Source: a bacterium (GTDB lineage: Bacteria > Patescibacteriota > Minisyncoccia > 2-02-FULL-40-12 > IGHO2-12-FULL-4). Taken from it: a stretch of DNA of 64,000 nucleotides. The notes beneath the pieces are model-generated. The model saw only the letters and a list, made by a program, of their open reading frames with translations, was not told the DNA's origin and searched no databases. The position numbers and the translations under genes were made by a program. Each line of letters opens with the position of its first letter. Position 1 is the first letter of the stretch. Positions 2,905 to 55,717 of the stretch are shown piece after piece. The stretch lies in contig JAUSIQ010000031.1 of assembly GCA_030647955.1 (NCBI GenBank), positions 2,920 to 66,919 on the forward strand, in the 5' to 3' direction.

Positions 2905-3210
2905 CTGAATGAAATGAAGGAGGAGTACAGCAAGCCAACAATTTGGCTTGCGTTGGGAGGAGAAGGGCAAGTCTATGTTTTTTTCAAAAACAGACTTGCC
3001 CCGGCCCGCAGGGGACCCCAGTACCCCGACATATATAAAAGAAAGGACCTTCATAGGCCCTTTCTTTTATATTAGTGAAGCTGGGAGTCGAAGGGTATCG
3101 AGAAAAAGTAAACAGTTTTACTTTTTTGAGAACCCCGGCCCTGGGGGAGAAAATTTCGATGTGCAGCAGGCACCAGAAATTTTCGGAGGAAGGGGACTCC
3201 CAGTACCTCC
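2905..3210 (+). repeat. tRNA-Pro-linked insert with two reiterated copies of the tRNA 3' end and a conserved ~125-nt structured module (3085-3210)
   Basis: CCCAGTACCCCGAC (tRNA 2892-2905) recurs at 3017-3030. GACTCCCAGTACC (2888-2900) recurs at 3195-3207. The module 3085-3210 is about 85% identical to 5643-5772 and contains hairpins GAAAAAGTAAAC/GTTTTACTTTTTT and GAAAATTTCGAT/ACCAGAAATTTTC. Confidence 0.6.
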
Positions 3211-5510: not shown

Positions 5511-5581
5511 GGGCTCGTAGTTCAGTGGTAAAACGCCGCATTCGCATTGCGGAGGCGCGGGTTCGATTCCCGCCGAGTCCA
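5511..5581 (+). tRNA. tRNA-Ala (anticodon CGC), no encoded CCA
   Basis: Acceptor GGGCUCG/CGAGUCC with G3:U70, anticodon stem CCGCA/UGCGG, loop UUCGCAU, T-arm GCGGG-UUCGAUU-CCCGC. Confidence 0.8.
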
Positions 5582-5772
5582 CAAATGAAACTTCGGGATC
5601 ACTTTCTGAAGTGGTCTAGAGGTTTCATGCTGTACCCGCCGAGAATCGAAGGGTATTGAGAAAAAGTGAACAGTTTCACTTTTTCGAGAACCCGGGCTCT
5701 GGAGGAGAAAATTTCGATATGCCAAAGGTATCAGAAATTTTCGGAGGAAGAGGATTCCCGCCGAGTCCACCA
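5582..5772 (+). repeat. tRNA-Ala-linked insert: partial copy of tRNA 3' end (5634-5642), conserved ~125-nt module (5643-5752), then a 20-nt copy of the tRNA 3' end with CCA (5753-5772)
   Basis: GATTCCCGCCGAGTCCA of tRNA 5565-5581 is repeated as GATTCCCGCCGAGTCCACCA at 5753-5772. The module is homologous to 3085-3210 and carries hairpins GAAAAAGTGAAC/GTTTCACTTTTTC and GAAAATTTCGAT/ATCAGAAATTTTC. Confidence 0.6.
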
Positions 5773-5830
5773 ATACAAATGATTCGAGCTTGGTACAATA
5801 AACACACTTAATATTATTAATTCCGCCATT

Positions 5831-25733: not shown

Positions 25734-26450
25734 TTAGACTGTCTTCGGTACAGCTCTTCGCACCCACCATTGTTCGAAGACAGAAAACAACGTGGTCACT
25801 GCCCAGTACAAAACCAATCCTGCGGGCAAGTTCCAACCAATAATTATAATCATAACCGGGAAGAAATACAACATTTGTCTATTCATTGCGCTTAAATCTG
25901 GACCGGATCCGGGAGTAGCTGGAGTATTAGATTTGGGCGGTAAACTCAACTTGGATTGAATAAATTGGAGACCTGCCGCAATAAACACCAAAACAAGATT
26001 ACGCGAGGCGAGATCAATAAATCCTAGAGAAATATTATTAATCACTTCTGGTCTATTCACAAATCCATATAATAGATCAAGACTTTCGGGCTTAAATCCA
26101 TTAAGAAAAGCGCGATAGAGGGCAATAAGAAAGGGGAGTTGGACTAACAAAGGCAGACAACCCGAGATGGGACTAATCTGGTTTTCTTTATAGAGAGCCA
26201 TCGTCGCTTGTGCTTGAGCAGCTTTGTCATTCTTATACTTTTCTTGAATAGTTTTCAGCTTCGGCTGCAATTCGGCTAATTTCTTTTGGGAGCGTGTAGC
26301 CTTAATAGACCATGGCATGAAGACTACTCGCACCAAAACCGTAAGCACGACAATCGCCACCCCAAAATCGTTTCCGGGAATAATATTGTAAATCCCCACT
26401 AAAAGGTTGAAAATCGGCTTATAAAGTATTTCTCTAAAAAGTGTGCTCAT
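25734..26450 (-). CDS. yidC: membrane protein insertase YidC/Oxa1 family (short form)
   Basis: 238 aa, polytopic, CLPLLVQLPFLIALYRAF motif; synteny with yidD-rnpA-rpmH. Confidence 0.85.
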   Translation of the reverse strand: MSTLFREILYKPIFNLLVGIYNIIPGNDFGVAIVVLTVLVRVVFMPWSIKATRSQKKLAELQPKLKTIQEKYKNDKAAQAQATMALYKENQISPISGCLPLLVQLPFLIALYRAFLNGFKPESLDLLYGFVNRPEVINNISLGFIDLASRNLVLVFIAAGLQFIQSKLSLPPKSNTPATPGSGPDLSAMNRQMLYFFPVMIIIIGWNLPAGLVLYWAVTTLFSVFEQWWVRRAVPKTV

Positions 26451-26468
26451 AAATTTAAAAACGGTTTA

Positions 26469-26714
26469 TTACTTACGAGAGGGGACGAGGTCCACACCGC
26501 GGGCACCCCACGGATGACATCGTCCAATTCTTTTTAATGCTAACCAAGTGCCTTTCCAGGCACCATGTTTCAGTAAAGCTTCTTCGGCATACTCTGAACA
26601 AGTAGGCACAAAGCGGCAATCAGCCGCCAAAAATGGTTTGAATAGCGGTAAAATCACCAGTAAAAAAACTTTTTTATAACCGGTGCTGATTAATTGGGTG
26701 AGGACTTTAGTCAT
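26469..26714 (-). CDS. yidD: membrane protein insertion efficiency factor YidD
   Basis: [15 protein letters not shown]...[12 protein letters not shown] signature. Confidence 0.85.
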
Positions 26715-26748
26715 AACTCCTAAGTGTATTAGAAATAAGATTAGTTAC

Positions 26749-27102
26749 TTAGACAATATTGGCTTTTTGTAATATATCTCTTAAGCTACTACTGACTTCC
26801 CTATATTTTTTATTTTTAACTCCGGTTTGAGCCATAATTATAAAATCTGTATGAGAAGTTTTCGAGTTTGAAACCGCTGTGACAATATTTCGAAGAGCAG
26901 CACTAATCGTTCTTTTAAGTTTATTTCTCTCTACGGCTTTAGAAGCAATGGATACCGGAACTACTATCGCCGCTCGATCAGTTAAGAGACTGTTCCTAAT
27001 AAATTTGATCAGAAAAAAGCTATTACGCAGACTAGAACCGGTCTTCAATATTTTTTCAAAGTCTTTTTTCTTCTTTATTCTGCTTTGTTTAGGTAAAGCC
27101 AT
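26749..27102 (-). CDS. rnpA: ribonuclease P protein component
   Basis: 117 aa basic protein with KLKR motif; start codon overlaps rpmH stop (TAATG); canonical rpmH-rnpA order. Confidence 0.75.
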   Translation of the reverse strand: MALPKQSRIKKKKDFEKILKTGSSLRNSFFLIKFIRNSLLTDRAAIVVPVSIASKAVERNKLKRTISAALRNIVTAVSNSKTSHTDFIIMAQTGVKNKKYREVSSSLRDILQKANIV

Positions 27103-27239
27103 TAAATAGTCAATTTCTTTCTTCCTTTGCGCATGCGGCGACGCAAAACTTTCTGTCCCGCATTAGTGCGTGATCTTTTTAAAAACCCGTGTTTTTTCTT
27201 TCTTTTCCTGGACTTGGGACGATAAAGTGTAGCTTTCAT
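27102..27239 (-). CDS. rpmH: 50S ribosomal protein L34
   Basis: Not in ORF track (45 aa). Reverse-strand translation gives [45 protein letters not shown]. Confidence 0.85.
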
Positions 27240-27529
27240 TTCTTTCTAGTTAGTATTCACTTCTGTACGGCTTTCAGAAGTAAAGACTTCCTGTATTAAA
27301 CATTTTCTTTACCATTCTCGGACTTATTCACATATGTAAACTGCCTGGGCCGCTTAAGTAGGAGAATGAATGTGCTTTAAATCATAATAAAATTTTCCGC
27401 AAATGTCAAAGAGTCAAATTTACTCTTTCCACTTTTTATACACAGGTTATGCACCGTTCAAGATTGTTCTTTATTCCATTTATTTGAAGTACAATACCCC
27501 TATAAGATAAGTATTATTTTCTCGCCACT

Positions 27530-28894
27530 ATGACAAAGGAAGAATTATGGAAAGCAGTACTAGGAGAGATGGAAACATCTTTGTCTAAAGCTAATTTTAC
27601 CACCTGGTTTAAGAACACCTCAATTGTCGCTAGCGAAACTGATTCGATCGTCGTTAGTGTTCCAAATGGATTCATCAAAGAATGGTTAGAAAATAAGTTT
27701 AATAAACAAATTCTAACCTCTATCCAACACCTCGTTCCGGAGATTCGAGAGGTGCGCTACACTATTGGTAATAATAATCCGTTTTTAAATGCCAAGAAGG
27801 ATTTCTCTCAGTTCGTACCAGACAAATTAGCGGACCAGAAACAATCCGGAGAAGTTAACCCTCAAACCAACTTAAATAAGAAGTATTCTTTTGATTCCTT
27901 TGTGGTGGGTTCTCATAACGAACTGGCTCATGCGGCTACTTTGGCCGTTTCTAAAGGACCGGGAAAGGTTTATAACCCGCTATTTCTTTATGGGGGAGTG
28001 GGGTTAGGAAAAACCCACTTATTACAATCCACTGGCAATAAAGTCTTAGAAGATGATCCTACTAAGAAGATTCTCTACATTCCGTCCGAGCGTCTTACTC
28101 AAGAAATTGTTGAATCGGTACGTAATAAAAGCGTAGAAGATTTAAAACATCGTTACGCCAAAATTGATGTATTAATCATTGATGATATTCAATTTATTGC
28201 CGGTAAAGAAAAGACCCAAGAAATTATTTTCTCTACCTTCAACGAACTTTACGGAAAGAATAAACAGATCATCCTATCCTCAGATCGTCCTCCTAAGGCC
28301 ATCCCAGCCCTCGAGGAGCGCCTCCGCTCCCGCTTTGAAGGGGGAATGATCGCTGACGTCAGTTTACCGGATTACGAGACACGTTTGGCTATTTTAAAAA
28401 TGAAATCAAAGCAGAAAAACTTTGAATTAGATGAGAATGTTTACAGTTATATTGCCACTAATATTCAAAAGAATATTCGCGAGCTAGAAGGAGCTTTAAA
28501 TCGAGTTATAGCGGTCAGTCAAATATATAATAAGAGCCTAGACCTTAAAGAAGTAAAAAAGCTCTTAGTAACCTACTTAAGTACGCCATATAAGAAGACT
28601 ACTCCTCAATTAATTTTAAAATCTGTCTCCGATTTTTATGGTATCTCCCTTCAAGATCTCGTCAAAAGAAGCCGCAAAAAAGAAGTAGTCCGCCCTCGAC
28701 AAATTGCTATGTATCTTTTGCGAGAAGAAACCAAGTCTTCTTTTCCAGAAATCGGCCAAAAATTAGGCGGACGCGACCACTCTACTGTTATCCATGCTTA
28801 CGAAAAAGTTAAAACCGAAGAAGAAAGCGACGAAGCAACCAAACAAGAATTAGTATTAATCAAAGAAAGAATTTACCAGTCTATGGATAAGTAG
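27530..28894 (+). CDS. dnaA: chromosomal replication initiator DnaA
   Basis: Walker [12 protein letters not shown], Walker [10 protein letters not shown]-terminal DNA-binding helix RPRQIAMYL; 454 aa. Confidence 0.95.
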
Positions 28895-29137
28895 CTGTTT
28901 ATATCTATGTGTATAAACCAGGGATAAGAGTGGGATGATTGCGCTAACCTACCCCAAATAGCCAATTTTATCCCAGAGTTATTCCCAGTTGCCCATAAGT
29001 TATCACAAATCTATCCATAAAAAATTTAAGCGTACTAGCCTAAGAACACTATACGTAATAAGGTAATTCCGAAGAGAGAGGAGATGATTGTGGATAAGTA
29101 GTACGCTCTCTAATAGTAGATATCTTATATTTAAGAA
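28895..29137. promoter_or_regulatory. candidate oriC: DnaA-box cluster between dnaA and dnaN
   Basis: Perfect TGTGGATAA at 29089-29097. Near-boxes TGTGTATAA 28908-28916, TTATCCCAG ~28967, TTATCACAA 29000-29008, TATCCATAA 29012-29020. AT-rich tracts present. Confidence 0.6.
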
Positions 29138-30226
29138 ATGATTATAACTATTAACCAACGGAAGGTGAAAGAAGCTTTAGCGGTTACGGAGAAAATTGTC
29201 TCTAAGAATTTAGCTTTGCCTATTTTACAAAACGTTGTGATTAGAACTGAAAATGGTCGGGTCAAAATTTCCTCCACAAATTTAGAGATCGGGATTAATT
29301 TCTGGCTAGGAGCGAAGATTGAGGAGGAGGGGGATGTGGCTATTCCGGCTCGTCTCTTTTCGGAGTTTATTAACAATGTCCAAAGCGAAAAAGTAACTAT
29401 TAGTACCAAAGAGAACATCGCCTATATTAATACCGAAAACTCTAAAACTAAGATTATTGGTTTTCCGGCGAAAGATTTTCCAATTATTCCCAAGAATAAA
29501 AACACCCCTTTTGTTACCTTGGGAGCTAAAAAGATTTGGCAGTTATTTAGCGCGGTGATTGATTCCGCTTCTCTTTCCGAGGCTAGGCCGGAGTTAGCAG
29601 GGGTATTTGTGCATTTCTCTCCGACTAAAATTGAAAGTGCAGCCACAGATAGTTTTCGTCTTGCTGAACAGGTGATCTATGAAAATGGGAAAATTGATCA
29701 GAGTATGATTATCCCTAAGACCACCATCCAAGAGCTTATACGGGCCCTAGGAGATCGGGAAGAGGATATTGCACTGTCTCTATCGGAAAACCAAATCTTC
29801 TTCTCTACGAGCGATTTTGAGATCGTCTCTCGTTTAATCGATGGACACTATCCGGAATACAAAAGAGTCATCCCTGAAAAATTCTTATCCAAATATACTC
29901 TCTCCAGGGAAGAGCTAGAGAAAAGCGTGCGTTTAGCGAGTATTTTTACCTCTAGTATTGCCGATATTAAATTACAAGCCGATAAAGATGGTTTTAAGGT
30001 TTTAGCTAAGAACGCTGATAAAGGGGAGGTAAATTTGTCTGTGCCAGGAACGCTAAAAAATGGACCATTTGGGATTGCTGTAAATTATCGCTATCTTTTA
30101 GATGGTTTAAAAATCATTCCTACTTCTCAAGTAGAAATCGAGTTTACAGGAGAGGGGAGTCCTTTAATTTTACATCCAGAAGGTAAAACAGACTTTACTT
30201 ATTTAATCATGCCTCTCCGTAGTTAG
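29138..30226 (+). CDS. dnaN: DNA polymerase III beta sliding clamp
   Basis: 362 aa; position after dnaA; clamp-like three-domain length; LPILQNV motif. Confidence 0.9.
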   Translation: MIITINQRKVKEALAVTEKIVSKNLALPILQNVVIRTENGRVKISSTNLEIGINFWLGAKIEEEGDVAIPARLFSEFINNVQSEKVTISTKENIAYINTENSKTKIIGFPAKDFPIIPKNKNTPFVTLGAKKIWQLFSAVIDSASLSEARPELAGVFVHFSPTKIESAATDSFRLAEQVIYENGKIDQSMIIPKTTIQELIRALGDREEDIALSLSENQIFFSTSDFEIVSRLIDGHYPEYKRVIPEKFLSKYTLSREELEKSVRLASIFTSSIADIKLQADKDGFKVLAKNADKGEVNLSVPGTLKNGPFGIAVNYRYLLDGLKIIPTSQVEIEFTGEGSPLILHPEGKTDFTYLIMPLRS

Positions 30227-30241
30227 GAAAAAATCTCTGCT

Positions 30242-30523
30242 ATGCAAGATATAAAGAATTATTTATTAAAGTTAAAGAAAGAAGCCCATAAGAATCAAAA
30301 AGAAGGAGATTTGGTGAGTAGTAGAATTAAAGAAGTGATTGTGGCTAATTTTGAAAATGAAGCGGTCCTGAAATATATCAGGACTTTTTATATAAAAAAA
30401 GAAACTCTGTTTATTGAGACCACCAGTAAAACTATGGCTCAAGAACTCTATTGGAAGCAAGAAGATCTCAAGGAGAAGATCAACCAAGAAAAAGTTTTGA
30501 TAAAGAAGATTGTGGTGCGCTAA
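30242..30523 (+). CDS. dciA: DUF721/DciA-like protein (putative helicase-loader family)
   Basis: 93 aa; pattern LFIETTSKTMAQEL...LKEKINQEKVLIKKIVVR resembles DUF721 (VxVxSSxWAxEL...I.FR); located right after dnaN. Confidence 0.5.
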   Translation: MQDIKNYLLKLKKEAHKNQKEGDLVSSRIKEVIVANFENEAVLKYIRTFYIKKETLFIETTSKTMAQELYWKQEDLKEKINQEKVLIKKIVVR

Positions 30524-43776: not shown

Positions 43777-44016
43777 ATGTATAATATGGGCAGCTCTTTT
43801 TTTGGAGGCCCTATGAGTAACAAGCTTATTGTCAAAGCCATAGATGACCTGACTTTAGATGAGATGGTAGCCATGCTTAGAGAGATTAAGATGACTTCGG
43901 AGGAAGAAGAGGCGCAGAGGATTAGTTTTGCTTACGGTAATGTAAAATTGTCCAATCCTGCTATAACTTTGGAAATGGTTATAGAAGCGGCCAGAAAACA
44001 CCCTCGAAAGAAGTAG
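43777..44016 (+). CDS. small hypothetical protein
   Basis: 79-aa ORF, no motif. Confidence 0.3.
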   Translation: MYNMGSSFFGGPMSNKLIVKAIDDLTLDEMVAMLREIKMTSEEEEAQRISFAYGNVKLSNPAITLEMVIEAARKHPRKK

Positions 44017-44037
44017 ACCCGCAAGGGTCTTTTGTTT

Positions 44038-44226
44038 TGTCCGCCCACTAGGAGTTGGTCTCGGCTCTCGTTCGCCCGTCGGCGAACTCGGCCTAACCAC
44101 CAGCTCGCCATGTCATCTACTGACGACATATGGCTCCGCTGTTCAACTCCTAACGCCAGCCAAGTAGTTGGCTGGCTGTGGTCTGTTAAACATAAAGAGA
44201 CCCTTCGGCCTCTTTATGTTTACATG
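44038..44226 (-). repeat. tRNA-Lys-linked insert ending in a reiterated tRNA 3' end
   Basis: CCGCCCACTAGGAGTTG at 44040-44056 repeats the tRNA-Lys 3' end (44228-44245). An inverted partial copy TTCAACTCCTAACG lies at ~44146-44160. GC-rich hairpins. Motif CTCGGCCTAACCACCAGC is shared with the tRNA-Ile insert. Confidence 0.55.
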
Positions 44227-44299
44227 TCCGCCCACTAGGAGTTGAACCTAGAACCTTATCCTTAAGAGGGATCTGCTCTGCCAATTGAGCTATGGGCGG
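44227..44299 (-). tRNA. tRNA-Lys (anticodon CUU), no encoded CCA
   Basis: Acceptor CCGCCCA/UGGGCGG, anticodon loop CUCUUAA, T-arm CUAGG-UUCAACU-CCUAG. Confidence 0.75.
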
Positions 44300-44311: not shown

Positions 44312-44386
44312 TGGTGCCCTCGGAGGGAATCGAACCCCCATTGCTGGTTCCGAAGACCAGTACTTTATCCGTTAAGCTACGAGGGC
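44312..44386 (-). tRNA. tRNA-Arg (anticodon UCG), CCA encoded
   Basis: Acceptor GCCCUCG/CGAGGGC, anticodon stem CUGGU/ACCAG, loop CUUCGGA, T-loop UUCGAUU, ACCA 3' end. Confidence 0.8.
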
Positions 44387-44815
44387 ATCTTTGCTTTTAA
44401 ACCATTTAAAGTCTTTAGCTGTTTTTCTTCTGTGGCAGTTTGCGCACCTTACATCGCATTTGTCTACTTCTTCTTTTATCTTATATAATTGGTAGCGTCC
44501 TGTGACTAAATGCGACACTGCTTTGAATTTATCTCTTTGGTGATCAAATTCCAAAACTCTAACATCCGCTTCTTTGCAATCAACACAGGGGTGTCTAGAT
44601 AGATAGTCTAGAATAAAGCTTTGCGCCGCCAGTCTGTTCTTAAGATTTCTTTTACTGGTTTTCTGCAAATAGTAATTTCTGTTGTTATAGTAATGCTTTT
44701 TAATTAATGTACGAGCACATTCTTTGCATTGATAATGGCGCAGACCCTCGGCCTTTATTTTAAAGCTGAACTGATCTAGGGGCTTTTTCTTCTTGCATCT
44801 CGTGCATTGCTTCAT
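44372..44815 (-). CDS. HNH endonuclease (free-standing, homing-endonuclease-like)
   Basis: Zinc-ribbon CxxC pairs plus HNH core CVDCKEADVRVLEFDHQ...CANCHRRKT; 147 aa; the 3' end overlaps the 5' end of tRNA-Arg by ~15 nt. Confidence 0.7.
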   Translation of the reverse strand: MKQCTRCKKKKPLDQFSFKIKAEGLRHYQCKECARTLIKKHYYNNRNYYLQKTSKRNLKNRLAAQSFILDYLSRHPCVDCKEADVRVLEFDHQRDKFKAVSHLVTGRYQLYKIKEEVDKCDVRCANCHRRKTAKDFKWFKSKDALVA

Positions 44816-47877: not shown

Positions 47878-48531
47878 TTAAGCCAATTCGGCCTTGGTTA
47901 GCTCCAGCCATTTGAGCATCTTTTCTTTCAACTGACGACTGTGGACGTAAATAGTACAGATCCCAAAAGATTTTTGTTTAGTACGGGCTTTGTTCGATAC
48001 AACCACAGATTTTCTAAAGAGAGGACTGGGTATGCCGGTCGCTTTGCTCCAGAGGTTCTTATGGACCGTTTCGGCTAAACCGGGGTAGAGGTAAAGCCGG
48101 CAAGAGATTTTGTCAGCCTTTACGGTTTTGGATAGAAAAGAAAAGAACAGTTTTGTCATATCAAAATCGTTGGAAGAAAAACGGACTACCGAACTCTCCG
48201 GGCTTAAATCGCCCTGGCTCCAGTAAAGAATGATGGCAGGCAAGAATAGGGGATTTTTCTGAAGGATCGTAAATTCTTCTTCGGCCTGGGTTTGGGCGGA
48301 TTGTCGCCATGCCTGCCAGCGCTGGCGATTAACCGCGGCCATTTTTTTTATCTTTTGCGCGGCACCGACGCGAGAGGGAGTACTGAGGGAATCACGAACC
48401 AGTATCGACCAGGGCTGGTCTCTAAACCAACCACTCAGGGTGGCTTTGGGGATACCTAGTTTTTTAGTGATCTCCGCGTAGCTCTTACCTTGTTGACGTA
48501 AGGCCACGGCTTTTTCACGGTCATTTCGCAT
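47878..48531 (-). CDS. HTH-domain protein, possibly transposase- or mobile-element-derived
   Basis: N-terminal helix-turn-helix KAVALRQQGKSYAEITKKLGIPKATLSGW typical of IS630/IS30-type transposase DNA-binding domains; no DDE motif; 217 aa; beside a tRNA cluster. Confidence 0.4.
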   Translation of the reverse strand: MRNDREKAVALRQQGKSYAEITKKLGIPKATLSGWFRDQPWSILVRDSLSTPSRVGAAQKIKKMAAVNRQRWQAWRQSAQTQAEEEFTILQKNPLFLPAIILYWSQGDLSPESSVVRFSSNDFDMTKLFFSFLSKTVKADKISCRLYLYPGLAETVHKNLWSKATGIPSPLFRKSVVVSNKARTKQKSFGICTIYVHSRQLKEKMLKWLELTKAELA

Positions 48532-50574: not shown

Positions 50575-50803
50575 TTTCGACTATATATTAATGTAATGAG
50601 TACACCCGTAAAGTTAATCAAGAATCCGACAAAGATCGTAAAGTGGTTGCCGGTAAGTAATCCTTCGGGGGTTTCCAGGCCAATGTTTAAGTGATGCAGA
50701 ATGTCTAAAACCAAGCCGACTGCCTCGACCGCTGTACCGAATAGACTAATCTTGATTCCTTTTTGGAAGGTATTCATTTGTTTAATTGTTATTAAGCTTT
50801 TTT

Positions 50804-50853
50804 ATCCAAGACCAAAAGCAAACTATTGCTTTTGGTGGGCGCGCTTGGATTCG
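50804..50853. repeat. 50-bp direct repeat carrying a copy of the tRNA-Ile 3' end plus downstream hairpin (second copy 50944-50993)
   Basis: ATCCAAGACCAAAAGCAAACTATTGCTTTTGGTGGGCGCGCTTGGATTCG is identical at both positions. It includes the 21 nt of tRNA-Ile from T-loop to CCA and the hairpin CCAAAAGCAA/TTGCTTTTGG. The ~90-bp segment between copies is GC-rich. Confidence 0.65.
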
Positions 50854-50972
50854 GTTTCGCCTCTCGCCTCGCCAGGCGCTCGGCTCGGGCTAACCACCGC
50901 TTCGTGATTCCGCCTGCTGGCGAAATATCACTCCGGCGTTCTCATCCAAGACCAAAAGCAAACTATTGCTTT

Positions 50973-51049
50973 TGGTGGGCGCGCTTGGATTCGAACCAAG
51001 GACCGCCGAGGTATAAGCTCGGTGCTCTAACCGACTGAGCTACGCGCCC
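50973..51049 (-). tRNA. tRNA-Ile (anticodon UAU), CCA encoded
   Basis: Acceptor GGGCGCG/CGCGCCC, anticodon stem CCGAG/CUCGG, loop CUUAUAC, T-arm CUUGG-UUCGAAU-CCAAG, ACCA end. Confidence 0.7.
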
Positions 51050-53059: not shown

Positions 53060-53689
53060 TTACTCGATTAGTTTAACTGTGTCTACGGTACCAGTTCGAT
53101 GCATCTCTATGAAGCGCCCAGACAATGCTCGTAGTGCGGAGATAACCCGGACTTTTTTTTGCTGCCAATGAGCAAAGGTGGCCAGTCCGGAGAAATCGGC
53201 GTCGCCGGAGATGATCACGATGTCGGTGATATCGCTGTGTTGAATGATATCCCGAGCTAAACTCTCGAGCTTATTGTCCACGGAGTCGTGATCCTTGGTA
53301 ACTGCACCAGCGACTTGGCGAGGACAGACCACCGGGAAAAAATGGTGGATGTGAGACAGTTGCATGATGGGGGCGAGAGCGATGTAGTGAGTGGGGATAA
53401 AAACAAAAGCAAAGACAATCTTGCCTTCTTGAAGGATGGGATCGAGCAGCCATGAGAAGTTTTCTAGCCTCTCTCGAGACCCTTTTTTTAGATGTAATTC
53501 GAGATTGCGATAATCCATGAATATCGCAAAGGTTCTTTGTTTTGGCTCGGGAATTGCCGGTACGGCCGGCGCCTTTCTTTTAATGAACGGTGGGGTGATT
53601 TTTTTAAAAAACTTGAGGAAACGAGATGTTTTGATCTTATGATCCGTGCCCGGTGTAATCTGGGCTGGATCATTGAGGCTTATATTCAT
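53060..53689 (-). CDS. NYN-domain (LabA-like) putative RNase
   Basis: FAIFMDYRNL near the N-terminus of the domain and IVIISGDADF motif characteristic of NYN/LabA. Confidence 0.6.
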   Translation of the reverse strand: MNISLNDPAQITPGTDHKIKTSRFLKFFKKITPPFIKRKAPAVPAIPEPKQRTFAIFMDYRNLELHLKKGSRERLENFSWLLDPILQEGKIVFAFVFIPTHYIALAPIMQLSHIHHFFPVVCPRQVAGAVTKDHDSVDNKLESLARDIIQHSDITDIVIISGDADFSGLATFAHWQQKKVRVISALRALSGRFIEMHRTGTVDTVKLIE

Positions 53690-53831
53690 GGCCTATCTCC
53701 TAGGAACACTAGTAGGCATGAGCCCACTAGAATTCAGTATACCGCACAAGATTGACAGAGTCAATAGAAAGTTATATACTATAAGCAATTAGTAACTTCA
53801 AAACTCAATACAAGAAAGGAAGAAGGTAAGT

Positions 53832-54428
53832 ATGAGAGCTATGCCTATAGTAGTTCCGCCCAGTCTTTTGCTATCTACTAGCAGGAGAATGGAGAAGCTT
53901 AAGCCTAAAGCGATAACCGTTCGGCTGGTCGTCATAGAAGACGATCAGGTGTTACTTGTCCATGAGAAAGGGGATCAATTTAGCTCTAAACCGGCCGGCT
54001 GGGGATTGCCCGGTGGCGGGCTCGACGGAAAGAACGCCGAGGAGCTGGTCATGTCCATCAGAAGATTCCTTCCGATTCAATCCCGGGTACCGCCAGAGCA
54101 AGTAGAAGCAATGATGTTTACAATTTTAGACTTCACGACTGATATTGCTTTGGATGTTTTTCTGGTCGGTGTTAAAGAAGGGATTGAGGAGACGGGTTTG
54201 GTAATCCGTCCAGAAAAGAAACTATTTGAGATTCAGAACAGTCCCGAGCATACCATTGTTGTGGTGCGGGGGAATATTCTTGGAGGGACATTAAGCACAA
54301 GAAATACGGAAACTGATGATTGTCGTTGGTTTTCTCTGGAGACTCTGCCTCAAGGCCTATATGTTTCTCATGAAAGAATGATTAGAAGGACGATGAATAT
54401 TTTAAGTTTGTCGTCGGGGACAAAATAG
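53832..54428 (+). CDS. NUDIX-like hydrolase (degenerate/expanded Nudix box)
   Basis: VRLVVIEDDQVLLVHEKG...WGLPGGGLDG start and a K-E-G-I-E-E-T-G-L segment matching REUxEExGU, but separated by an insertion; start may be Met-20. Confidence 0.45.
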   Translation: MRAMPIVVPPSLLLSTSRRMEKLKPKAITVRLVVIEDDQVLLVHEKGDQFSSKPAGWGLPGGGLDGKNAEELVMSIRRFLPIQSRVPPEQVEAMMFTILDFTTDIALDVFLVGVKEGIEETGLVIRPEKKLFEIQNSPEHTIVVVRGNILGGTLSTRNTETDDCRWFSLETLPQGLYVSHERMIRRTMNILSLSSGTK

Positions 54429-54436
54429 GAGAGGTT

Positions 54437-55717
54437 ATGAGCAAGATGGTATTCACGGCGGCTGGCGGCGCTAACTTTATCGGTGCCAGTGCCTACGTAC
54501 TCAAACTAGGAGATAGGCACATTTGTGTGGACTGGGGACAGAGTGTCTCCAAATCTGTGGAAGGGCCTCAATATGACGGCTCTCTAGATTATCTATTACT
54601 GACTCATGGTCATGCTGATCATATTGGTTTGGTCCCGGTAGCGTTAAGGCGTTGGCCTCACCTGAAGATCTTTGCTACGGCGGAGACCAAGGAGTTGGCC
54701 AAGATTGCCTGGAGTCAAACTATTTATCATTCTCTTCGAAAAGAAGCGCAAAATCGGCATCAACCCCTCTTCACAAGAGAGGAGGCCGAGATAGCCGAAA
54801 AAGCAATTGTGACGATTACGCCTGGAGAAACTATCAATTTGAGTGGAGACATTCAGGTTACCCCACTGCCAGCCGGGCACATTCTAGGAGCGGTTTCGTT
54901 TCTGGTCGAGTATCAGGACGAAACCTGTTTCTTTAGTGGAGACATCTGTTATCACGAAAGTTTTTTTGTTCCGGGAGCGCCCTTACATACATTGGATCGC
55001 TGTCGTCTTCTAGTTCGAGAGTCGGTGTATATTAATACAGACTTCGATGATCGAGAGAGTATCGTTCGAGACTTCGTTCAGTCCGCGGAAGCGGTGCTGA
55101 GGCGAGGAGGTCAGTTGTTGGTACCCGCTCTTTCTATTCATCGCACGCAAGAGATGTACGCGATAGCGGCGGAAGCGGGGCTGGGACCGGTCTATATCGA
55201 CGGATCTCGTCAAGCGACAGAGGTCTATCGACAATTTGCTCCTCGTTGTGGAGAGGTTCTAGAAAATGTTCCTCGTTTTGAATCGCATGACGAAAGGAGG
55301 CGATTGATTCAAAGTAGGGAGCCGGCGATCATTATTGCTTCTTCGGGAATGGTGTATGAGAATACACTCTCCGCGACGTGGGCCGAGAATCTTATCTTCC
55401 GAGAGCAGAACGCCATTTTTACCGTTAACTATCAAGATCCCTGCGGGCAGGGACATAGGCTGGTTCATAGCGAAAAGGGAAAGTTTATTCCTTTTAACGG
55501 AGGTATTGTTAAGAGGATGTGCGAAATCCGTCACTTTCCACTTTCCGCCCACATGGACGGAACTGATGGACAAAAGATGGAAGAGAGGCTTAACCCTGAC
55601 ATTGTAGTTTACGCTCATGGCGAAAATGATCAGATCGAAACTTATCTGGAGGCAAATCCGAGTACGGTAAATCGAAAAAAGATCAAGGCAGAAGTAGGAA
55701 AGGAGATTGAACTATGA
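54437..55717 (+). CDS. beta-CASP-family metallo-beta-lactamase-fold nuclease (RNase J/CPSF-like, short form)
   Basis: MBL motif LLLTHGHADHIG; beta-CASP motif A-like LLVPALSIHRTQE, B-like IIASSGMV, C-like HFPLSAHMDG. Confidence 0.65.
   Translation: MSKMVFTAAGGANFIGASAYVLKLGDRHICVDWGQSVSKSVEGPQYDGSLDYLLLTHGHADHIGLVPVALRRWPHLKIFATAETKELAKIAWSQTIYHSLRKEAQNRHQPLFTREEAEIAEKAIVTITPGETINLSGDIQVTPLPAGHILGAVSFLVEYQDETCFFSGDICYHESFFVPGAPLHTLDRCRLLVRESVYINTDFDDRESIVRDFVQSAEAVLRRGGQLLVPALSIHRTQEMYAIAAEAGLGPVYIDGSRQATEVYRQFAPRCGEVLENVPRFESHDERRRLIQSREPAIIIASSGMVYENTLSATWAENLIFREQNAIFTVNYQDPCGQGHRLVHSEKGKFIPFNGGIVKRMCEIRHFPLSAHMDGTDGQKMEERLNPDIVVYAHGENDQIETYLEANPSTVNRKKIKAEVGKEIEL

Follow-up and report, generated by a model that had tools for sequence, protein, structure and literature searches.

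Folded non-coding elements behind tRNA genes of Paceibacteria: the insert downstream of tRNA-Lys and its relatives

Introduction

In the genome of a Patescibacteriota bacterium (GenBank contig JAUSIQ010000031.1), the gene for tRNA-Lys is followed by an insert of 167 nucleotides (nt), with no gene inside, that ends in a second copy of the 3' end of the same tRNA gene. The insert lies in a stretch of 64,000 nt, referred to here as the window. This arrangement raises the question of what the insert is and why it reproduces the end of the tRNA gene next to it. An initial annotation of the window, made from the letters alone, proposed that this insert and the one behind tRNA-Ile represent a second family of tRNA-flanking inserts.

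Bacteria of the candidate phyla radiation (CPR) have genomes that are among the smallest and most streamlined. Nonetheless, in the window and the loci examined, these small genomes carry at least one folded element at many of their tRNA genes. The family is far larger than the window suggested: it is widespread in Paceibacteria, has a conserved three-way-junction fold, and includes an antisense segment matched to the tRNA. The Lys insert is one copy, of the core type that we call B, of this family of small folded non-coding insertion elements located 3' of Paceibacteria tRNA genes, and these elements are probably selfish and non-autonomous.

The insert behind tRNA-Lys

The tRNA-Lys(CTT) gene is intact. 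It was located at 44226-44299 by ARAGORN and at 44227-44299 by the Rfam tRNA model (64.8 bits), on the minus strand, as are the parts of the element described next. The last 20 nt of the tRNA (R1, 44225-44244) are repeated exactly at 44038-44057 (R2), with a spacing of 187 nt. The repeat is TGTCCGCCCACTAGGAGTTG, or CAACTCCTAGTGGGCGGACA in the tRNA sense; this reiteration had been noticed before over 17 nt and extends to 20 nt. R2, an exact copy of the tRNA-Lys sequence (CAACUCCUAGUGGGCGGACA), runs from C56 of the T-loop to 2 nt beyond the discriminator. The window contains five direct repeats with copies of 14 nt or more lying no farther than 400 nt apart, an excess of about 50-fold over the 0.095 expected from shuffled sequences; four of them reiterate the 3' end of a tRNA.

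Read in the tRNA sense, the gene is followed at once by a terminator-like hairpin, AAACAUAAAGAGGCC GAAG GGUCUCUUUAUGUUU (44187-44222; arms 44187-44202 and 44207-44222), which includes one G.U pair, on the tRNA-sense strand only, and has an equivalent after R1 in nearly all family members. Then come the 4 nt CCAC (44178-44181), which pair with GUGG of R2 in the minimum-energy fold. They are a remnant of a segment antisense to the acceptor stem (anti-acceptor), the full form of which occupies 7-10 nt at this position in other copies. Hairpin c, GCCAGCCAA CUAC UUGGCUGGC (44155-44176; arms 44155-44163 and 44168-44176), precedes the anti-T segment GUUAGGAGUUGAAC, placed by model alignment at 44141-44154. 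This segment is antisense to the T-loop and the 3' strand of the T-stem of tRNA-Lys and is the 5' strand of a closing helix, P1, of which R2 is the 3' strand. The inverted copy that it contains, GTTCAACTCCTA, is exact over 12 nt (44141-44152) and reaches 14 nt (44141-44154) when two G.U pairs are allowed; its existence had been recognized in the initial annotation, although at a position a few bases too far to the right.

Between the anti-T segment and R2 lies a type B core of 83 nt (44058-44140), defined by a structural parse, a covariance-model match and helix covariation. It consists of helix P2 (AGC at 44138-44140 with GCU at 44102-44104), a GGAG/GA internal loop (44134-44137 and 44105-44106), hairpin A (44107-44133), and a G-rich joiner with the P3 region (44058-44101), which holds a hairpin at 44070-44087 (arms 44070-44076 and 44081-44087) and the motif GGUGGUUAGGCCGAG (44087-44101). 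Past R2, a bidirectional terminator hairpin (44015-44030) also terminates a convergent open reading frame (ORF) of 79 amino acids (43777-44016). The terminator-like hairpin, hairpin c and the hairpin at 44070-44087 are the three that had been listed from the letters, and the higher G+C content that had been noted is also real, with 53.9% in the insert and 58.9% in its core, compared with 44.5% for the window as a whole and 43.8% and 36.4% for the two flanks. The tRNA-sense strand folds with -98.6 kcal/mol (z=-10.4 versus shuffles) and the opposite strand with -82.5 kcal/mol (z=-7.8); the sense strand is the more stable one because G.U pairs exist in it only.

Relatives of the insert in the window and in related loci

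A motif common to the inserts behind tRNA-Lys and tRNA-Ile, as had been suggested, was found exactly twice in the window (GGTGGTTAGSCCGAG, at 44087-44101 and 50884-50898), and the similarity spans the whole 88-nt cores. A covariance model of type B (named R2, and distinct from the repeat R2) was built from 17 elements, all of them from other species, with no window sequence included. In the 64-kb window it produced exactly two matches, one in the Lys insert (44047-44152, minus strand, 39.3 bits, E=2.7e-10), which covers the full model, and the other behind tRNA-Ile (50843-50949, minus strand, 25.1 bits, E=1.1e-5). These results indicated that both inserts are homologous and belong to a tRNA-flanking family distinct from the inserts behind tRNA-Pro and tRNA-Ala. 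A relationship to the region upstream of tRNA-Pro, which had also been proposed, did not survive: the 11-mer TTCGCCCGTCG is present there, but at chance level (blastn E=2.7), and no covariance-model signal was detected at 2775-2832 even with the filters off. The parts that define type B, namely P1, a GAA joiner, P2 (NNC/GNN) with the GGAG/GA loop and a hairpin, a G-rich joiner, and P3 leading into C56, are all found in the Lys insert.

The comparison was extended to 80 related loci (designated by L-numbers), drawn in through relatives of the ribosomal protein L19 of the window (best L19 identity 63-74%). They amount to 1.16 Mb and nearly all come from Patescibacteria/Paceibacteria, which are CPR bacteria. 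The type B model had 45 further matches in these loci, and 43 of the 47 matches lie within 700 nt downstream of a tRNA gene on the same strand, 38 of them within 130 nt. In the window and related loci, at least 12 of the last 24 nt of the tRNA were recopied on the same strand within 700 nt downstream at 64 of 317 tRNAs, and upstream at one. Further tRNAs, among the 303 with at least 150 nt of sequence downstream, had an antisense segment only (anti-acceptor in 17, anti-T in 28, tallied separately so that the two may overlap), whereas the upstream control for the anti-acceptor match gave 3 of 303. About a fifth to a third of the tRNAs bear an element, versus some 1% upstream.

The elements are non-coding, measure about 90-200 nt, and are always found in the tRNA sense, directly behind the cognate tRNA. 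The order of the unit is tRNA (R1), terminator-like hairpin, optional anti-acceptor segment, optional hairpin c, anti-T segment, two-helix core, R2 and terminator. R2 repeats the tRNA sequence from around C56 as far as the 3' end, CCA included where it is encoded, and the terminator then follows. Its start is most often 19 nt from the tRNA end (C56); the repeat ranges from 12 to 58 nt, with a start that varies with the core type, and in 52 of 62 copies identity ends at the tRNA terminus (0-1 nt beyond). An anti-T segment of 9-15 nt was present in about 58 of the 62. This segment and R2 pair as helix P1, which closes a three-way junction; consequently, every element fits the tRNA that it accompanies. 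The antisense segment also pairs with positions 73-74, and with the CCA where encoded. A full anti-acceptor segment was contiguous with the anti-T segment in seven cases and split from it by a hairpin of 22-25 nt in six. The splitting hairpin was always located between the complements of positions 66 and 65 (6/6) and never elsewhere, which is the place where the D/anticodon domain leaves the acceptor/T-stem stack in a tRNA. This hairpin c is a conserved module, AG-NR-AGCAAA-YWGY-TTTGCT-YN-CGT, and the Lys variant is nearly identical to one in L105.

Four core types were distinguished, of which only B and C were analysed in detail, types A and D being assigned by eye. The Lys and Ile inserts, like many others, are of type B. 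Type C is characterized by a long P2, the joiner GUAC and a P3 hairpin of 5 bp whose loop reads YUGUAAK. Type A is found in the two inserts behind tRNA-Pro (Pro1 and Pro2) and the one behind tRNA-Ala in the window, and type D in L051 and L110. Types B and C are both three-way junctions, in which P1 closes the structure, a GAA-containing joiner leads to P2, and P3 abuts the first base of R2. The position of the junction in the T-loop or T-stem differs with the core type (53/54, 56, 57 or about 61).

Hand-checked alignments strongly supported these folds. For type C, 90.6% of the cells were paired, 23 of 30 pairs had changed on both sides, none of 500 shuffles was as good, and slid controls reached 31-52%. 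For type B the figures were 89.9% paired and 16 of 21 pairs changed on both sides, counted over the columns retained after the distal parts of two variable hairpins in the seeds were replaced by GAAA, and again none of 500 shuffles was as good. A G.U pair is conserved in the P3 of type B, and a conserved G.U occupies one type B position in 9 of the 17 seeds. In the internal helices G.U pairs outnumbered A.C pairs (38 versus 13, p=6e-4), a bias that favours the tRNA-sense strand. P1 copies the target duplex, with about 600 Watson-Crick pairs versus 8 internal mismatches, and many hairpin tips are GCGAAGC-like mini-hairpins with GNA triloops. The type C covariance model (named R1) identified 39 sites at E<1e-4, none of them in the window. 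When the whole window was compared with Rfam 15, which covers known self-cleaving ribozymes, group I/II introns and tmRNA, only tRNAs passed the gathering threshold and nothing overlapped the inserts at E up to 10. Resemblances to group I introns and to the hammerhead and pistol ribozymes, seen by eye, were rejected on the basis of Rfam and of the junction order.

Turnover and distribution of the elements

The presence of elements was all-or-none between genomes: 42 of the 80 loci carry at least one, and 38 loci, with 137 tRNAs, carry none. The core type found at a given tRNA differs between species. Tandem or nested arrays were observed at the window tRNA-Pro gene and in L105, L108, L109, L097, L066 and L120, and many copies have decayed by losing the acceptor part of R2. 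The closest pair of loci, L105 and L108, align over 15 kb with 84% identity. At tRNA-Val and tRNA-Leu they share the flanks and one orthologous element, but differ by whole extra units. Five metagenome contigs with the 3' half of tRNA-Lys, two of them with the identical tRNA, have no insert; these contigs are non-syntenic with the window.

Some loci showed particular arrangements. In L120 (7066-7520), two type B units of identical sequence, scoring 40.8 bits each, lie behind tRNA-Arg(TCT); since the repeated stretch takes in the tRNA end as well as the entire terminator, it is a recent tandem duplication of a complete unit. In L072 (11776-14600), tRNA-His is followed by an element, three ordinary genes (alpha/beta-hydrolase-like, phosphoglycerate-mutase-like and methyltransferase-like ORFs, named by eye) and a second element, of type C, ending in the tRNA-His 3' end, so that repeats of the tRNA end enclose a small islet. 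L108 (6380-6560, minus strand) contains a pseudo-tRNA-Arg that keeps the 5' two-thirds of the molecule (acceptor 5' strand, D arm and anticodon arm) and then passes into a hairpin and a type C core, which is followed by a diverged R2, with an intact tRNA-Arg just downstream. This pseudo-tRNA may be an intermediate linking the elements to whole tRNA genes.

Nature of the elements

The family is abundant and linked to tRNA genes, its fold is conserved, and it turns over rapidly by gain, loss, nesting and decay. Tandem and nested arrays, decay, patchiness and differences by whole units make it resemble selfish elements more than stable genes; its selfish, non-autonomous nature and its means of spread are inferred. 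The elements would spread by recombination at the T-loop/3'-end segment of the tRNA gene. Each would bring its own copy of that segment, leaving the tRNA gene intact, and the enzyme would be supplied in trans. The element would probably be transcribed in the tRNA sense and act as a folded RNA, the antisense segment of which may serve for target recognition. Transcription is putative because a strong terminator intervenes between tRNA and element and no consistent promoter was seen.

Several observations weigh against a selfish nature or against this route of spread. A move to another tRNA needs a change of both the antisense segment and R2, and simple cut-and-paste or exchange at an attachment site does not explain such a change. 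No empty site was seen in a syntenic, nearly identical genome, nor an excised form, the contigs compared being non-syntenic. A recombinase, transposase or reverse transcriptase was not found in or next to the elements examined. An autonomous version was also not found in scans of viral contigs with short motifs and longer gapped patterns. The short motifs gave chance matches only, with no extended similarity. Two longer gapped patterns led to one IMG/VR contig (L130), which carries housekeeping genes and tandem type B copies and no integrase, a second match (L131) being due to chance; the type C pattern had no match. With respect to an RNA form, P1 showed no asymmetry between G.U and A.C in a neutral count, and the excess of G.U in the internal helices was tallied over related sequences and could also reflect single-stranded DNA, in which G.T is tolerated. 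Finally, all the related loci are L19 gene neighbourhoods, and the frequencies may not hold genome-wide.

A more specific version would be a new kind of mobile element that is RNA-guided and matches itself to its target. The antisense RNA would find the tRNA or its gene over about 20 nt, and an enzyme acting in trans, or the core itself as a ribozyme, would cut or join at the T-loop. The guide would be interrupted by hairpin c, and the segment matched by it duplicated exactly. In a variant, the core would release R2 as a spare 3' fragment that repairs tRNAs cleaved in the T-loop. We regard this version, the variant included, as unlikely; a recombinase or nuclease gene cognate to a guide RNA was found at none of the window elements or inspected loci. 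Somewhat less doubtful, but still rather unlikely, is that the elements are genes for a tRNA-like non-coding RNA beneficial to the host. The anti-acceptor segment, hairpin c, the anti-T segment and R2 would together reproduce the stacked acceptor and T arm of the tRNA next to them, the three-way-junction domain standing in for the T-loop; local duplication at the end of the tRNA gene would generate new copies, and the RNA could be a decoy, a sensor, a partner in processing or repair of the tRNA, or a spare 3' fragment. The conservation of the fold with covariation and the G.U bias for the sense strand agree with an RNA gene, as do the constant sense orientation directly behind the cognate tRNA, the exact site of hairpin c (in all six interrupted segments, the other seven being contiguous), the end of R2 at the tRNA's own 3' end (at CCA where encoded) followed by a terminator, and the number of examined tRNAs that bear elements in positive genomes despite the very small size of these genomes. 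However, half of the related loci lack elements, an identical tRNA-Lys elsewhere has no insert, and whole units are gained or lost at 84% genome identity, with copies nested in each other. Moreover, R2 has lost its acceptor part in many copies, the Lys copy retains only 4 nt of the anti-acceptor segment, and base pairing of the discriminator and C74/CCA leaves free no NCCA end of the kind required of a tRNA mimic.

Two other explanations place the function of the repeat in DNA. If the active form were single-stranded DNA, on the model of integron attC sites, the CTX-phage attP and the ends of IS200/IS605, the hairpins and P1 would rebuild the double-stranded tRNA-gene target for a strand-specific recombinase or nuclease. 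The exactness with which P1 reproduces the target duplex and the mini-hairpins at many hairpin tips are in agreement with this mechanism; these are GCGAAGC-like with GNA triloops, a form that Hirao et al. reportedly found to have unusual stability as DNA. The strand bias of the internal helices fits as well, G.T being the best-tolerated DNA mismatch, and the tRNA-Arg/tRNA-Lys pair is immediately preceded by a gene for an HNH endonuclease. Nonetheless, we give this possibility little credit: enzymes of the HUH, Xer or integron type were not detected in the vicinity of the elements, a repeat of 12-58 nt is unlike those three systems, and the conserved G.U of the type B seeds and the placement of the terminators are more typical of RNA genes. 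The remaining explanation is an ordinary scar, in which a phage or integrative element with a tyrosine integrase would have entered the T-loop region of tRNA-Lys and lost its interior, leaving 167 nt of attP arms between attL and attR. A direct repeat from the T-loop to the tRNA 3' end is said, by Reiter et al. in 1989 and Williams in 2002, to be the classic signature of tRNA-targeted integration, and tandem accretion and the small cargo islet would be consistent with it. A scar is nevertheless very improbable. Homologous inserts of 90-200 nt, present at dozens of tRNAs and in dozens of species, are not what deletions occurring independently would leave behind, double-stranded arms that bind proteins are not expected to preserve hairpins through compensatory changes, and the tRNA-matched antisense segment has no role in an attachment site. 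Furthermore, neither an integrase gene nor a pseudogene is nearby (none beside the Lys insert, the neighbours of which are the HNH endonuclease, the 79-amino acid ORF and an aminotransferase, nor among the other window ORFs scanned), and the viral-contig scans found no phage contig with a core beside an integrase. Chance resemblance or an assembly artefact, for which nothing speaks beyond the shortness of the repeat, is refuted by the excess of direct repeats, by the same architecture in many independent assemblies, and by the match of the Lys insert to a model built from other species; its probability is negligible.

Comparison with known systems

Like the elements that integrate at tRNA genes by means of a tyrosine integrase (phages, integrative and conjugative elements and genomic islands) and their derivatives without an integrase, such as the cis-mobilizable elements or CIMEs, the elements described here leave the tRNA intact, repeat its 3' part from the T-loop to the end, accrete in tandem at one tRNA, and occasionally trap genes between repeats. 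A direct repeat of this kind bounds the Lys element and, likewise, those at 62 other tRNAs. They differ in their size of 90-200 nt, in the absence of an integrase, in an interior that is a covarying three-way junction of several core types, and in the presence of a target copy in antisense, which base-pairs with the repeat. In being short, non-coding, hairpin-rich and G+C-richer than their surroundings, they resemble miniature inverted-repeat transposable elements (MITEs) and the REP/BIME, Correia, RPE and PATE families, as well as the GC clusters and double-hairpin elements of yeast mitochondria and the repetitive hairpin-forming elements of sponge mitochondria (PMC2800124). The likeness includes many copies per genome, tandem or nested arrangement, and patchiness between relatives. 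Unlike MITE-type repeats, however, the present elements lie strictly 3' of tRNA genes and in one orientation. Their inverted arms, the anti-T segment and R2, vary with the neighbouring tRNA instead of forming a fixed site for a transposase, no autonomous parent was found, and the repeat is not a short fixed duplication but one of 12-58 nt that ends at the tRNA terminus.

With the bridge or seek RNAs of IS110/IS1111 and the omega RNAs of IS200/IS605, the elements share a structured body of about 100-200 nt, encoded where an element ends, a segment complementary or identical to the target, and target sequence 3' of the scaffold. Unlike in those systems, no recombinase or TnpB gene is attached, there is no Rfam match, guide and target copy are both present and paired over about 10-20 nt, and the duplication is of 20 nt and not of 2 nt or none. 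The elements can be compared with the tRNA-like domain of tmRNA, the 3' tRNA-like structures of viruses, mascRNA and tRNA minihelices in that their acceptor and T stems reproduce real tRNA sequence, a side hairpin branches off at 7/49, and their 3' end is that of the tRNA. This acceptor-on-T-stem form with a side domain at 7/49 was seen in copies with a full anti-acceptor segment; the Lys insert has the T-stem part and hairpin c, but no more than 4 nt of the acceptor partner. The differences are that the T-loop is replaced by a large core, that the discriminator and C74/CCA are paired, and that the 5' strand of the acceptor stem is largely missing from many copies, Lys included. Mobile tRNA introns (the bacterial group I introns of the anticodon loop and the archaeal bulge-helix-bulge introns, which also occur in the T-loop) are structured, occupy a defined position in the tRNA and pair with the flanking tRNA. 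In contrast, the tRNA upstream of our elements is complete and leaves nothing to splice, and the elements have no group I core and no Rfam match. To our knowledge, the bulge-helix-bulge splicing endonuclease is absent from bacteria.

No description of such elements was found in the literature searched, the coverage of which was incomplete and makes this weak evidence of novelty; the family is apparently undescribed so far. If selfish, it would be a new type of tRNA-targeting mobile DNA or RNA without a gene of its own, and its targeting logic, in which a conserved junction sits between an antisense and a sense copy of the target, would merit study and perhaps practical use. If functional, it would be a new class of tRNA-linked RNAs. 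Either way, the elements are unannotated, confound the prediction of tRNAs and attachment sites in metagenome-assembled genomes, and offer a concrete system for how small structured elements spread without encoding an enzyme.

Other elements and genes of the window

The second type B element follows tRNA-Ile(TAT) (50973-51049, minus strand). The insert measures about 88 nt and lies between the two copies of a 58-nt repeat (50796-50853 and 50936-50993), which comprises the CCA-bearing 3' end of the tRNA plus the hairpin that follows. This tRNA has the anticodon TAT (UAU) and an encoded CCA, and it is also present in L046; tRNA-Ile(UAU) is an unusual bacterial way of reading AUA. On the plus strand, tRNA-Ala(CGC) (5511-5582) is followed by one insert (5583-5774; repeat at 5565 and 5753) and tRNA-Pro(CGG) (2833-2905) by two successive ones within 2906-3206: Pro1 (2906-3016), which ends in the repeat CCCAGTACCCCGAC, and Pro2 (about 3067-3206), which ends in GACTCCCAGTACC. 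Pro2 and Ala belong to another type, as had been thought. Over 114-122 nt their cores share 85-87% identity, but each carries ends that fit its own tRNA, tRNA-Pro in one case and tRNA-Ala in the other. This type A core reads GAAGGG, a hairpin, and CCCCGGCCC...GGG, and the same type occurs in L085 (at both tRNA-Pro genes) and L097. Pro1 bridges the Lys/Ile and Pro2/Ala types through hairpin c, which it shares with the Lys insert (33 nt at 85%) with a compensatory change from A-U to C-G. The region 2775-2832, between the gene for the CCA-adding enzyme and tRNA-Pro, is G+C-rich and contains two short hairpins (CTCGC/GCGAG and CTTCG/CGAAG).

Two protein-coding genes are located among tRNA genes. 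The HNH endonuclease mentioned above (147 amino acids, 44372-44815, minus strand) is endonuclease VII-like (phrog_2255, E=1.8e-29), and its sole homologue in the related loci, in L115, likewise lies between tRNA genes. A 217-amino acid protein with an N-terminal helix-turn-helix (HTH) is encoded between tRNA-Cys and tRNA-Phe (47878-48531, minus strand). It has homologues in at least seven loci, beside tRNA genes in L044, L046, L052, L080, L104 and L109, with one more in L086. Its AlphaFold model is confident (pLDDT 89.7) but has no significant fold match in PDB, and the HTH is the only Pfam domain recognized; the consensus LAGxMLYWGEGxK makes it a tentative candidate for a LAGLIDADG-like nuclease. 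The presence of nuclease genes within tRNA clusters suggests that break-induced exchange is frequent there, but the genes could not be linked to the elements. Genes for an NYN-domain ribonuclease, a NUDIX protein and a beta-CASP/metallo-beta-lactamase RNase are close together near a tRNA cluster (53060-55717).

The cumulative GC skew has its minimum at about 26-28 kb, in a region (26000-30300) with rnpA/yidC-like genes and dnaA/dnaN-like ORFs, the latter assigned from N-terminal sequence only; the replication origin is probably located here. On either side, the tRNAs that carry elements are oriented toward this putative origin. An island of about 60% G+C in the 44% genome (56000-58300), with a 561-amino acid ORF (56531-58216) and a 204-amino acid ORF that have no Pfam match, may be foreign DNA. 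An intergenic tandem repeat at 60509-60548 consists of about five copies of the 8-nt unit AACTTTAT.

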